UHGV virus genome: UHGV-0294068
Direction: 5' to 3' (one strand)
Length of the DNA stretch: 12,821 nucleotides
Origin: a virus
Shown here: piece after piece, positions 3,380 to 7,380 of the stretch
How positions within the stretch are numbered: the stretch's first letter is position 1
Layout: each line of letters opens with the position of its first letter
Translations under genes and position numbers: made by a program
The notes under the pieces: generated by a model
Told to the model about the DNA's origin: nothing
What the model saw: the letters and a program-made list of their open reading frames with translations, nothing else
Database searches by the model: none

Positions 3380-3860
3380 TGGTTGCCTCCTTCATAAAAA
3401 TAATCCAGTGGGTCTTGTCACCCTTTCCTGTTCGTTGACCGATAACAGGCTTTCTGTCGGTCAGTGCCAATATCTGGCGAACAGGTATTTGCGTTTCATT
3501 CCATTTAAAAATCAGAACGCCGTATGGCCACAACACACGAAAGGCTTCTTTGAATCCCTGCCGTAAATCATCACGCCAGGTATCTTTATTCAGCCGTCCA
3601 TATTTCTTTCCCATCCGAGCGTTATCACCAACACGCTCAAGATGCGGAGGGTCGAATACAACCATCGAAAAGGATGCGTCTGCAAATGGTAGTGCACGAA
3701 AATCAGCTATCAGGTCAGGACTGATAATCAGGCGTCGTCCATCACACAATGTGTGCTCTTCCTTTCTGATATCGCTAAATATCGCCCGGTCGTCATTCTT
3801 ATCGAACCAGAACATGCGACTGCCACAGCACATGTCGAGGATTGCTGCATGTCCAGTCAC
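3366..3860 (-). CDS. Small SAM-dependent DNA methyltransferase (orphan)
   Basis: Motif I-like DMCCGSRMF followed about 60 aa later by motif IV-like VVFDPPH. Start taken at GTG 3860 (AGGAGG 6 nt upstream, GTGA overlap with upstream stop); track start ATG 3893 is the alternative. No specificity domain evident. Confidence 0.65.
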   Translation of the reverse strand: MTGHAAILDMCCGSRMFWFDKNDDRAIFSDIRKEEHTLCDGRRLIISPDLIADFRALPFADASFSMVVFDPPHLERVGDNARMGKKYGRLNKDTWRDDLRQGFKEAFRVLWPYGVLIFKWNETQIPVRQILALTDRKPVIGQRTGKGDKTHWIIFMKEATSERD

Positions 3861-4384
3861 TGCTTGCCTCCTTTGCGAATCTGTTCCGCCCATTCTTCAA
3901 GGGATTTCTCCGCATATTCACCAGACAGGCCATCAATCGGATGCGCTTCATTAACCAACTCTTCTTTCGCTGACAAAATCATGCGTGTAACGTCGAAAAC
4001 TTCATGCAAAGACTTATTGATAAATCCGTGATTGAACGCAGCAGCAAGACGGCTGGCGGTATAGTTAATCCCCTCGTTGCGTGCTTCCGCACGAATTTCA
4101 GCCAGAAAAGCATCGGTAGCTGGGGTTTCTGGCATACAGTCAGCAGCGTCGAAATACTCTTCACTTTTGTCATCCCAAATCCAGCAATCATCTTTGATGA
4201 ACTTGTTCAGCCCTGCATTCTCCGCTGCCAGCGCATTAGCACGCACCAGTTGCACTTCCAGTTGCGTTGCCAAATCGCTGATCAGCTTTGCCACACTACG
4301 CATATCAACGGCACCACATTCTGCTTTCAGTTCCGAAGCCATCTCATGCCCGGCGGCAACTAACCCTTTGATATTACTTTCCAT
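3857..4384 (-). CDS. Hypothetical phage protein (175 aa)
   Basis: ATG 4384 with GAGGG RBS; acidic, helical-looking; no motif I recognise. Confidence 0.5.
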   Translation of the reverse strand: MESNIKGLVAAGHEMASELKAECGAVDMRSVAKLISDLATQLEVQLVRANALAAENAGLNKFIKDDCWIWDDKSEEYFDAADCMPETPATDAFLAEIRAEARNEGINYTASRLAAAFNHGFINKSLHEVFDVTRMILSAKEELVNEAHPIDGLSGEYAEKSLEEWAEQIRKGGKQ

Positions 4385-4430
4385 CTTTACCCTCGCTTAT
4401 CCACATAACTTATTGATTACATTGATAACT

Positions 4431-4463
4431 AAAAAGATCGTCGATTCATGCCGATCTATTTTT
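4431..4463 (-). terminator. Candidate intrinsic terminator at the 3' end of the HNH gene
   Basis: Plus-strand AAAAAGATCG-tcgattcatgc-CGATCTATTTTT; minus-strand RNA forms a stem followed by CUUUUU. Large loop, so weak call. Confidence 0.3.
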
Positions 4464-5054
4464 CATCAGTGATTCATAAAACTTTTGCCACTTATGCCGA
4501 CCGAAATTAGCCTTCGAGTTACAGCTCGAACAAAGGCAAATAAGGTTCTCCTGACGACAGTCTTGCTTGTCGTAATTGATGTGATGAGTTGTTAGCCTTT
4601 TGTCTGTTCCATCACAACCTGGGTTCTGACAAGTAAAACCATCTCGCTCAATAACCCTCTTGCTCGTTTCTCGGAAATCCCACGGATACGGCAATCTCGA
4701 TAATCCACCAGACCAGTTTGGATTTCCTTCCCCCTTCATCAGAGAAGAACGCATTATGTTGGAACACTGTTTCGAGCAGCATTTATGACGCTTCTCATGA
4801 CTCAAGAAAACGGAGAACGAAGATCCGCATACGCAGCATATTTTTAATACTCGCTTTAGTTCCCGATTTACCGTCTTGCCTCGCTGTGAAATTCCTACAC
4901 ACTGAAGTGAGCAGAACCTTGAAGATGAGTTGGCTCGCTTAACCTGATATTGCCTGCCACATACGGAGCAAACCTTTTCGATTTTCCCACCCTTCCAATT
5001 CGGGTTTTTATCACCGGATACAATCAATCCCGCAGCATTGGGCTTCTCGCTCAT
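4446..5054 (-). CDS. HNH endonuclease with duplicated zinc-binding modules
   Basis: HHINYDKQDCRQENLICLCSSCNSKAN HNH motif at the C-terminus; two NPNWKGG/NPNWSGG plus Cys-pair modules; ATG overlaps upstream stop (ATGA). Confidence 0.75.
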   Translation of the reverse strand: MSEKPNAAGLIVSGDKNPNWKGGKIEKVCSVCGRQYQVKRANSSSRFCSLQCVGISQRGKTVNRELKRVLKICCVCGSSFSVFLSHEKRHKCCSKQCSNIMRSSLMKGEGNPNWSGGLSRLPYPWDFRETSKRVIERDGFTCQNPGCDGTDKRLTTHHINYDKQDCRQENLICLCSSCNSKANFGRHKWQKFYESLMKNRSA

Positions 5055-5521: not shown

Positions 5522-6322
5522 TTACTTGATAAATCCTGCCGCCTTTCCCCGCCTGTATTCCTCCATCAGCCACTGCGCCGGTGTTATTCCCCCCAGGGTA
5601 GCGGCGTTAGGCATACACCCGAAACTTCGCCCTGGTGGATGGTAAACGCCTCTCCCTGTGTCCGGAGGCGTACTCATGGGTTCTGGCTTTGCCTGTATGC
5701 TGATCACCGGATCGGGTATCTGCTGTCCGGAAGCCACCTTTTTCGCCCAATCATCAAGCAGCCTGCGCGCGTGTTTCTCAACCTCAATCTCGCTAAGCTG
5801 GCGCTGATACATTGCACGGCGGGTATCACATACGACCCAGTACATAACCGGATGCCGCCACGGGAATCTTTCGGGACCACCAGGATATAAACTTTTTTCC
5901 TTGCTGTACCGGTGAAACTCCGCCATCACATCGTCAATGGTGACGCCAAGAACCATCTTGCTGTCTTTACACCACTTGATAAATTGCCCTGGCGACGGCC
6001 AGAACGGAGATTCACTGGCGCGGGCGTGGCGCATACCAGCAGAAACCTGTTCACGGGTTCGGATCCCCCCTTCGGCAAACGCAGCAATCCACTGCTGTTT
6101 TGCAGCAACTTCCTGCTCTGGCGTCTTCAGGTTGGTTACCACTGCCGCCGGAAACAGTTGTTTCAACTGTTTGAAAAGGGCATCAACAAGCCTCTCTGCT
6201 GACATGTTCACTACGTTGTCATTGTTGGTGTACTGATGCTCATAACCTGACATGCGAGAAAGGGCTTCTCCGTCACGGTTTTGTATCGCGGTAAAAACGT
6301 TGTTCACAAGAAATCCTCCCAT
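5522..6322 (-). CDS. Replication protein P-like helicase loader
   Basis: MRHARASESPFWPSPGQFIKWCKD aligns with lambda P as I recall it (MRVARRQNRPFLPSPGQFVAWCRE); sits directly downstream of, and overlapping, the O-like gene. Confidence 0.8.
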   Translation of the reverse strand: MGGFLVNNVFTAIQNRDGEALSRMSGYEHQYTNNDNVVNMSAERLVDALFKQLKQLFPAAVVTNLKTPEQEVAAKQQWIAAFAEGGIRTREQVSAGMRHARASESPFWPSPGQFIKWCKDSKMVLGVTIDDVMAEFHRYSKEKSLYPGGPERFPWRHPVMYWVVCDTRRAMYQRQLSEIEVEKHARRLLDDWAKKVASGQQIPDPVISIQAKPEPMSTPPDTGRGVYHPPGRSFGCMPNAATLGGITPAQWLMEEYRRGKAAGFIK

Positions 6323-7095
6323 GCTTCAGGGCTGTTCCAGTGCGGAACGTTGTTATCAGGTAATGTTGATTGCTTCTGTCTGCTAATCTGCAGCCGCCTT
6401 GCCAGCTTCTGCTCCCACTGTGCCTGATGGTATGCCCTACCCTCAGCCATCCAGTAAATTCTGAACTCTGCAAGTTCCTGTGCCGTTGGCAGACTGTCCA
6501 GGTAGATCCCCTGCAATGAGCTTTTCCGAAGAAAGTCATCTGATGGCTGCCATTGTTCATGCATGACAAATTTGCCTAATTGCCCTGGCCCACCAGGAGG
6601 AACAAAGTTATTCATCACGGCGTTGTTTGCGCCGGGGTCATGATGCACAGAATCCCCGTTTTTTGTCCTGCTCTCCCTCTCTTGGTTAAATGACTGGTTA
6701 TATGACTGGTTCTGGATCCCGTTTTTGGGATCATTCAACATCCCGTTTTTGGGTATATTCCCGTTTTCGGGAACATTACCGTTTTCGGGTTCATTACCCC
6801 CTTCCCGGTTGCCTTTAATGTTCCCGTTTTTGGTTATATTAAGAGAGAAAACCCGCACTCTTTTCGTCGCTCCCTTTCTCTCTCCGGTATCTGAAATAAG
6901 CCCCATTTTCATGAGCGATATAAGCCCGGCCTGCACGGTTTTTTTATTCAGGCAAGTGTCTTTAACGAGGCGTTCTATGCTGGGGTAGCAGAGGTTATAT
7001 TCATCGGCTCTGTCAGCCATCGAGAGCAGTATGAGCTTTAATGACGAGCTACCTGGATCTGTCTCCCAGGCCCAATCTGTTGCATGTCTGCTCAT
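6304..7095 (-). CDS. Replication initiator, lambda O-like, with origin iterons inside the coding sequence
   Basis: N-terminal winged-helix-like region, central N/G-rich low-complexity linker encoded by DNA iterons, C-terminal domain next to P; GGAG RBS before ATG 7095. Confidence 0.75.
   Translation of the reverse strand: MSRHATDWAWETDPGSSSLKLILLSMADRADEYNLCYPSIERLVKDTCLNKKTVQAGLISLMKMGLISDTGERKGATKRVRVFSLNITKNGNIKGNREGGNEPENGNVPENGNIPKNGMLNDPKNGIQNQSYNQSFNQERESRTKNGDSVHHDPGANNAVMNNFVPPGGPGQLGKFVMHEQWQPSDDFLRKSSLQGIYLDSLPTAQELAEFRIYWMAEGRAYHQAQWEQKLARRLQISRQKQSTLPDNNVPHWNSPEAWEDFL
6717..6833. repeat. Replication-origin iterons
   Basis: TCCCGTTTTTGGG / TCCCGTTTTCGGG / TACCGTTTTCGGG copies starting at 6717, 6741, 6759, 6777, a degenerate copy near 6795, and 6822; mostly 18-bp spacing; all inside the O-like ORF. 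Confidence 0.75.
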
Positions 7096-7110
7096 GATTA
7101 ATCTCCGCTA

Positions 7111-7380
7111 TCAGCTTGAATGTTGTGGGGAGGAATTAATCATGATCTGCTTAATCTCTGCCCTGATACGACGGTTTGATTCCATGGTGCACTCAACACA
7201 GTGTCCGTTGTAAACCCAGCGTTCACTGTCATGTCCGTGCTTACATGGTTTTCCGGTGTAGTAGCGTTTAAGTCCGCGCTTTGCGGCATCAATACGTGTA
7301 ATGATTTCCATGGTAAGCCCTGTTATTAGTATTGGGATTACGGTCATTTTGTGCTGACACAAAAAAAAGATCAACCACAT
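7111..7380 (-). CDS. Hypothetical small protein with zinc-ribbon-like motif (CKHGH...CVEC), in the cII position
   Basis: ORF between the Cro-like gene and O. Start ambiguous: ATG 7380, 7347 or 7311; none has a strong RBS. Confidence 0.4.
   Translation of the reverse strand: MWLIFFLCQHKMTVIPILITGLTMEIITRIDAAKRGLKRYYTGKPCKHGHDSERWVYNGHCVECTMESNRRIRAEIKQIMINSSPQHSS

Follow-up and report, generated by a model that had tools for sequence, protein, structure and literature searches.

Positions 6653-6834 of the 12,821-nt virus genome UHGV-0294068 (the whole stretch that was analysed, hereafter the window) probably represent the replication origin of an Escherichia coli prophage of the phiV10/epsilon15 (Uetakevirus) type, situated inside the part of its replication initiator gene that encodes the linker between an HTH_36 N-terminal domain and a DnaT-like C-terminal one. 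The region is 94-99% identical to that of phiV10-like phages (Uetakevirus). The assignment is carried by a non-random cluster of dyad-symmetric direct repeats (iterons), by the way in which these repeats behave as DNA elements in distant relatives of the initiator gene, and by the identity of one of them with an annotated initiator-binding site of phage phi80.

Iterons and adjoining 12-mers in the initiator gene

The scan of the 12.8-kb window with the pattern TCCCGTTTTYGGG (allowing at most 2 mismatches) recovered five matches, all on the plus strand (at 6717, 6741, 6759, 6777 and 6822), where 0.64 would be expected by chance; five matches were reached in 0/200 shuffles, and neither a further match nor a second iteron cluster was found elsewhere in the window. 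A sixth and weaker copy (coding strand ACAAAAAACGGGGA) occupies 6653-6666. On the coding strand, the iterons take the form (A/T)TCCC-R-AAAAC-GGGA(A/T), dyad-symmetric about the A-tract, and their units extend beyond 13 bp (as in GATCCCAAAAACGGGATC at 6732-6715 and GTTCCCGAAAACGGGAAT at 6774-6757). The array (five good copies and the weak one) spans nucleotides 262-442 of the initiator gene, after the winged-helix domain (amino acids (aa) 1-90), and encodes the peptide ...TKNGNIKGNREGGNEPENGNVPENGNIPKNGMLNDPKNG..., with P-[EK]-N-G units.

The initial annotation of this DNA had located repeats within the linker of the initiator gene, and in this respect it is borne out (five TCCCGTTTTYGGG copies, non-random and confined to the spot); likewise, the Asn/Gly-rich linker peptide that it quoted matches TKNGNIKGNREGGNEPENGNVPENGNIPKNGMLNDPKNG as translated from the open reading frame (ORF) 6304-7095. 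Its count of five to six 13-bp repeats agrees with the five good copies and the weak sixth, the 13 bp being too short for the unit. The 'mostly 18-bp spacing' is half right, since the start-to-start distances that the repeat finder gave for the same five copies are 24, 18, 18 and 45 bp (i.e. two steps of 18 bp, accompanied by one of 24 and one of 45). Tandem Repeats Finder reported an 18-bp array (6743-6798) and a separate 12-bp array (6683-6711). The extent 6717-6833 proposed at that stage proved too narrow: it omits a conserved 12-mer element (described below) and the sixth copy at 6653-6666, both of which probably belong to the origin and extend it to about 6653. A terminator-like match at 6726-6745 (+) was rejected, as it consists of two adjoining iteron halves, and the single-strand DNA folding of the origin is unremarkable (z = -1.96).

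Beside the iterons, the window carries its own version of a tandem 12-mer element that is found throughout the family. In the family form, the last iteron is succeeded by three 12-13-nt units of the type (R)GAAYCNNNCANN and then by AAAAATAAAA, the steps between units being 12 or 13 nt, which places them in mixed reading frames. Chains of at least three 12-13-nt units were detected in 47/71 relatives and in 0/284 control segments, and the family-average AT content peaks (at 74%) 40-50 nt past the last iteron. Furthermore, in the close clade no other part of the gene varies as little as the 12-mer stretch with its two adjoining iterons (2/37 variable sites, vs about 17% gene-wide). The window 12-mers read AACCAGTCAT.. 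instead of RGAAYC.. in units 2 and 3. Taking into account its position next to the iterons and the parallel offered by the 13-mers in oriC and in iteron plasmid origins (PMC4081077), we regard the triple 12-mer with its A-rich segment as the best candidate for an unwinding element; because the AT content of the window is about 58-60% there, the unwinding step itself is put forward conditionally. As a separate observation, the origin iterons of phage P22 (RAATCGGTAAAAC, with the last copy reading ACCGAATCAGTCAAAC; P22 locus 1846-1930) resemble the 12-13-mers of the family (CAGAATCAGTCATTAG; in the window AACCAGTCAT), a likeness that could be a coincidence or could point to a second class of initiator site.

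Relatives, phi80 and competing explanations

The module to which the array belongs is present in 424/5426 complete E. coli genomes (about 8%), whose annotations give the gene no name other than 'DnaT-like ssDNA-binding domain-containing protein'. Close relatives (gene identity of 88% or more) have 5-9 copies, the differences amounting to entire iteron units of 18 or 24 bp; phiV10 carries an additional 12-bp unit, and the initiators of these relatives range in length from 263 to 311 aa. At larger distances (35-55% identity), phages of Vibrio (H20), Edwardsiella (GF-2) and Acinetobacter (AP22), together with E. coli PPompW, harbor CCC-AAAAY-GG repeats at the same gene position.

We assembled the distant relatives as a set of 78 loci from one-genome-per-species data and scored them for the presence of at least 4 clustered repeats. 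Such clusters were found in 68 of the 78 loci, about nucleotides 280-500 into the gene (with starts at about 280-300), and in all but one of these (67/68) they lie inside the ORF. The repeats stand in more than one reading frame in 60/68 loci, and their spacings (dominated by 17, 22 and 24 bp) show no preference for multiples of 3 (modulo 3 = 117/98/105). In the cluster test the target region was positive in 61/69 cases, as compared to 1/69 and 2/69 for the flanking controls. These comparisons show that the repeats act at the DNA level, as distant relatives combine mixed frames with a modulo-3-uniform spacing and the controls are nearly blank. A CCC-N6-GG(G) core (of the CCC-AAAAC-GG type) is common to most initiator relatives, across several bacterial orders; the iterons vary by clade (e.g. 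CCCAACAATGG with AACAGT flanks in Acinetobacter, and CCCCCGAA in Desulfovibrionaceae), and the recognition-helix region changes in parallel with the iteron sequence between clades. The repeats were not found in SPN1S and Tyrion, which share only the DnaT-like C-domain and served as negative controls.

The comparison with phage phi80 leads in the same direction. Its annotated gp15-binding sites read AACCGGAAACGGGAAG, TTCCCGAAAACGGGAA, TTCCCGAAATCAGGAA and TTCCCGAAAACGGTAG, and the 16-mer TTCCCGAAAACGGGAA is identical to iteron c of the window (6758-6773, minus strand), the other window copies differing by 1-3 bases. The motif held in common is translated as F-P-K-T-G in phi80 gp15 and as P-E-N-G in the window. 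Exact copies of the 16-mer were recovered at 120 viral contig loci, of which 79 lie in phi80-gp15-type genes (frame 0 in 77) and 16 in HTH_36-type genes (always frame 1). That one DNA site is read as two peptides in two initiator families supports a function at the DNA level.

Several observations count against the origin assignment. Within the clade of the window all spacings are multiples of 3, so that a peptide repeat would be possible if this clade alone were considered; the rare-codon bias (CCC for Pro in 4/4 cases, background 10%; GGG for Gly in 5/6, background 15%) is confounded by recent unit duplication; and the third-position variability in the iteron cores of the close clade (4/24) is not clearly below that found elsewhere (64/240). 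Moreover, the putative unwinding region of the window has a GC content of 0.40-0.43 (40-nt windows), well short of lambda's A/T tract; the hhalign comparison of the N-domain with lambda O and phi80 gp15 returned probabilities of 7-12%, from shallow profiles; and the searchable literature yielded no description of this origin, nor was a rep_origin annotation found (the phiV10 record included). As the repeats are recent duplicates, the synonymous-codon argument was rejected as decisive.

The spacing pattern of the window and its close relatives (18, 24 and 45) could be taken to mean that the DNA repeats are a by-product of a low-complexity Asn/Gly/Pro linker peptide (P-[EK]-N-G) and have no DNA function, all the more as the P-E/K-N-G motif recurs, copy number varies here and linkers often evolve by in-frame duplication. 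We consider this very improbable. It is largely refuted by the frame analysis of the distant relatives (mixed frames in 60 of 68, with uniform modulo-3 spacing), the identical 16-mer gives F-P-K-T-G in phi80-type genes and P-E-N-G in the window, and in phi80 the annotation gives the copies as binding sites of the initiator. Furthermore, in GF-2 the peptide is altered (P-K-I-G) yet the dyad TCCCAAAATTGGGA is kept, which, at the level of sequence, supports the view that the repeats are maintained as DNA elements and not as a peptide repeat.

The same phage bears on the modularity of the locus. The GF-2 initiator (1201-2043) is chimeric, in that an HTH_36 N-domain, iterons and 13-mers are joined to a lambda/phi80-type C-domain (followed by a P gene), which shows modular exchange at the origin's end. 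Its junction DNA (CGTCCGAGAATTCTGACGAATCCTC) is almost identical to that of phi80, pointing to recombination at the origin's right edge. A different combination is seen in Salmonella phage SPN1S, whose initiator (1030-2310) pairs the DnaT-like C-domain with a different N-domain, contains no iterons of this type and is not followed by a P gene, so that in this phage the DnaT-like domain may function independently of P.

The iterons had been described in the initial annotation as differing in sequence from those of lambda and as defining a distinct replication specificity. The sequence does differ from the lambda iteron (TCCCTCAAAACGAGGGA), and a replication specificity distinct from that of lambda is plausible; with regard to phi80 the description fails, TTCCCGAAAACGGGAA being identical to an annotated gp15 iteron. 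That the iterons define a private specificity, apart from all characterised lambdoid replicons and with no cross-recognition by other initiators, is to our mind quite possible, although we lean somewhat against it. Such a specificity would fit the N-domain family (HTH_36, vs Phage_rep_O in lambda O, phi80 gp15 and P22 gp18), the spacing (18/24 bp, vs 20-21 bp in phi80 and 20-24 bp in lambda), the differing flanks and copy number, and the unlikeness of the iteron to those of lambda (3 bp less between half-sites) and P22. It is at odds with the 16-bp identity between one iteron and a phi80 gp15 site, and with a CCC-N6-GG(G) core that most family members hold in common over several bacterial orders. 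Given the shared core and the 16-bp identity, sequence alone defines no unique specificity, and cross-binding by phi80-type initiators is possible; the claim of a distinct specificity is thus not supported beyond the difference from lambda.

A broader proposal, which we offer as speculation and hold to be rather unlikely, is that the dyad site type (CCC-N6-GGG round an A-tract) is common to Phage_rep_O (phi80) and HTH_36 initiators. If true, this would imply an ancient and conserved initiator-iteron recognition code, extending across families barely linked by sequence comparison, together with possible cross-talk or incompatibility of phi80-type and phiV10-type replicons in one cell. The proposal also takes in the triple 12-13-mer of the HTH_36-type origins (RGAAYCNNNCANN and then an A-run), which is specific to this family and had not been described before; by analogy with RK2/TrfA, it could be a sequence-specific unwinding element that the initiator binds in single-stranded form.

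Candidate mechanism and known replicons

Whereas the repeat array, its location, the domains of the proteins and the comparative statistics are observed, iteron binding, unwinding and helicase loading are inferred, as parts of the following route to initiation. Judging by gene order, transcription from a pR-like promoter would express the initiator and a P-like loader and would pass through the origin. Dimers of the N-terminal winged helix would bind the five to six dyad iterons, whose central A-tracts would favour bending, and an O-some-like complex would be formed; this step is proposed because of the family-wide conservation at the DNA level and the identity with phi80 gp15 sites. The adjacent 12-nt units and the purine/A-rich tract (6653-6711) would be unwound, as their position and conservation suggest, and the DnaT-like C-domain, together with the lambda-P-type protein, would (by homology) deliver host DnaB to the opened DNA.

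The repeats might instead be initiator-binding control sites (involved in autoregulation, roadblock, handcuffing/copy control or the exclusion of related phages), with strand opening taking place elsewhere. Plasmid iterons do play such dual roles (PMC4980987), a lambda ori-containing fragment inhibits the replication of rep-lambda phages (PMC3349717), and the local AT-richness of the window is modest. We nevertheless regard a purely regulatory role as unlikely, as the conserved 12-13-mer and A-rich element adjoins the iterons family-wide, the layout matches that of the proven lambda, phi80 and P22 origins, and the 12.8-kb window offers no other iteron cluster and no DnaA box in or near the region. 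The sole perfect DnaA box of the window (TTATCCACA, 4397-4405, plus strand) falls between the ORFs 3857-4384 and 4446-5054 and is at chance level.

As an origin, the region can be set against the lambda paradigm, in which iterons and an AT-rich tract lie in the middle of O (PMC7466680). The lambda array numbers four iterons, and initiation there involves an O-some and P-DnaB recruitment. The lambda ori-in-O layout that had been proposed for the window is supported, with the repeats in the initiator linker, a repressor/cro-like switch upstream and a P-family gene downstream; in lambda, too, a repressor/cro switch is followed by an initiator that contains ori and then by P, and the iterons are dyad-symmetric (TCCC...AAAAC...GGGA) with a central A-tract (PMC7466680). 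The two differ in the iteron (TCCCTCAAAACGAGGGA in lambda, with half-sites 3 bp farther apart), in the initiator family and C-domain, and in the stretch beside the iterons, which is a strong 40-bp A/T tract in lambda and three 12-mers with a purine-rich tract of moderate AT content in the window.

With phi80 the window has in common the placement of the iterons (inside initiator gene 15, in the linker after the DNA-binding domain), the P-homologue that follows (gene 14 in phi80), and the iteron sequence itself (one copy identical over 16 bp, TTCCCGAAAACGGGAA; the others sharing TCCCGAAA-C-GG). The initiators differ, gp15 being a Phage_rep_O protein with a lambda-O-type C-domain, whereas that of the window combines HTH_36 with a DnaT-like C-domain. 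The arrays differ as well: phi80 has 4 iterons at 20-21 bp, succeeded by an A-rich tract and an GAGAATTCTGACGAATCC palindrome, whereas the window has 5-6 iterons at 18/24/45 bp, with the motif in another frame and with 12-mers in place of that tract and palindrome. In P22 the origin is annotated inside gene 18 and has another iteron (RAATCGGTAAAAC).

The domain pair HTH_36 + DnaT_C with an adjacent P-family gene (PHROG 1032 type) is also that of DopC/DopE (Brezellec et al. 2017, PMC5509034). That study reports having found nothing iteron-like at the domesticated dopC genes of bacterial chromosomes, in contrast to the phage and prophage genes analysed here, in which iterons are present. Iteron plasmids (RK2 oriV/TrfA, F/RepE, R6K/pi and staphylococcal RepA) resemble the window in having a winged-helix initiator, direct repeats about 2 helical turns apart, and tandem 12-13-mers beside the repeats as the likely unwinding element (PMC4081077, PMC4980987); they differ in that their origins are intergenic (that of the window being intragenic), and no significant sequence relation links the initiator to those Rep families. 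The Eru paper on Stx phages (PMC8044961) makes no mention of iterons or DnaT.

Initiator gene, its neighbourhood and implications

The features of the origin and its surroundings are collected in Table 1.

Table 1. Coordinates of the proposed origin, the initiator gene and adjacent elements in the window
Feature	Position	Strand	Remarks
Lambda-P-family helicase-loader gene	5522..6322	-	PF06992, E = 1.5e-56; PHROG 109; overlaps the end of the initiator gene
Initiator gene (263 aa)	6304..7095	-	HTH_36 N-domain, repeat-encoding linker, DnaT-like C-domain
Purine/A-rich tract ending in the sixth, degenerate iteron-like copy ACAAAAAACGGGGA	6653..6675 (copy 6653-6666)	-	From sequence
Three tandem 12-nt units AACCAGTCATAT, AACCAGTCATTT, AACCAAGAGAGG	6676..6711	-	Window version of the family triple 12-13-mer; candidate DNA-unwinding element
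Iteron e with flanks, GATCCCAAAAACGGGATC	6715..6732	-	Nearest to the 12-mers, where the gene varies least
Iteron d, CCCAAAAACGGGA	6741..6753	-	Part of a 24-bp unit that close relatives carry in differing numbers
Iteron c with dyad flanks, GTTCCCGAAAACGGGAAT	6757..6774	-	Inner 16-mer equals an annotated phi80 gp15-binding site
Iteron b, CCCGAAAACGGTA	6777..6789	-	Pattern scan
Degenerate half-iteron remnant AACCGGGAAG	6801..6810	-	Within the 45-bp interval from iteron a to iteron b; read directly from the sequence
Iteron a, ACCAAAAACGGGA (coding strand)	6822..6834	-	Farthest from the 12-mers; encodes T-K-N-G
RNA hairpin over the Shine-Dalgarno sequence and AUG of the initiator gene	7092..7145	-	Perfect 11-nt inverted repeat TCATGATTAAT / ATTAATCATGA
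pR-like promoter candidate	7718..7746	-	Consensus match only; gene order

The N-domain of the initiator comprises about aa 1-90 (nucleotides 7095-6826) and the C-domain aa 172-257 (nucleotides 6582-6325). Pfam assigns them to HTH_36 (PF13730, aa 18-67, E = 1.6e-10) and to the DnaT C-terminal domain (PF17948, aa 176-244, E = 1e-15), and the protein matches PHROG 1032 ('replication initiation protein', E = 2e-102). The C-domain aligns with residues 85-170 of E. coli DnaT (PDB DnaT chains, E = 1.7e-20). An AF2 model of aa 1-100 shows a confident winged helix (pLDDT 88.7), the alignment having been built from a protein search with the N-domain profile that returned mostly truncated proteins; the fold search gave generic winged-helix matches, including plasmid RepA/Rep (4pql, 5kbj), all of them weak (E >= 3.5e-3, TM about 0.5). 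None of the plasmid Rep families Rep_3, RepE/pi, TrfA and RepA_N was among the Pfam matches of the initiator.

The designation of the gene as an 'O-like ORF' in the initial annotation holds for its position and for a remote homology of the N-domain, and fails at the level of Pfam, where the protein is HTH_36 + DnaT C-terminal domain and had no Phage_rep_O match at E <= 0.01, the family that lambda O, phi80 gp15 and P22 gp18 all match. Remote relatedness to the O family is suggested solely by PHROGs 678 and 345, which the proteins have in common, and by an HHpred statement in PMC5509034. Membership of the lambda-O family by direct homology is not claimed, the BLASTP match to phi80 gp15 (E = 3.6) covering the repeat-encoded linker only.

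The initiator gene stands directly upstream of the lambda-P-type loader gene, and is itself preceded by a cro-like gene, a divergent two-HTH repressor, a pR-like promoter and a terminator. Judging by gene order, the candidate pR-like promoter would drive the cro-like gene, a small ORF, the initiator and P, and would thus transcribe through the origin. The hairpin at the start of the initiator gene (dG = -17.2 kcal/mol, z = -2.67) has its first arm within the 3'-terminal part of ORF 7111-7380, which lies upstream; this suggests either translational coupling to that ORF or a control of initiator synthesis. PHROG 15931 (482 positions) is matched both by the DnaT-like domain of the initiator (positions 200-268) and by the P-like protein (positions 354-451), a double match which hints that fused DnaT_C-P proteins exist and that the two are functionally linked.

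An antisense ORF (6725-6988, plus strand) overlies the iterons, and is listed as a 'putative membrane protein' in one phage record (677-919) whose initiator gene is frameshifted; we rejected it as a real gene, since the T-rich strand, together with the frameshift in that record, probably gave rise to an artefactual annotation. Elsewhere in the window, a RecE-like exonuclease (DUF3799/PDDEXK) and RecT are encoded by two overlapping ORFs (9239-10938, plus strand), which in phiV10 are annotated as one fused coding sequence. An HNH-endonuclease-like ORF (4446-5054, minus strand) adjoins a DUF1064 gene at a place where phiV10 has an eae-like gene, and may be a mobile insertion.

Taken together, the proposed origin adds a straightforward further member to the classic lambdoid type in which ori lies within the initiator gene. 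Its iteron had already been described in phi80, and the established picture of lambdoid replication is left unchanged; the only points that are mildly surprising are the family-wide 12-13-mer element and the iteron common to two initiator families. With the proposed origin, a prophage module of about 8% of complete E. coli genomes and the phiV10-like phages of O157:H7 gain a concrete annotation of where replication would start (about 6653-6834); in these records the gene has so far been annotated only as 'DnaT-like' or 'primosomal protein'. Moreover, the combination of an HTH_36 N-domain, mixed-frame iterons and a triple 12-13-mer constitutes a predictive signature across many Gammaproteobacteria and beyond, and the iteron shared with phi80 warns against reading replication specificity from iteron sequence alone.

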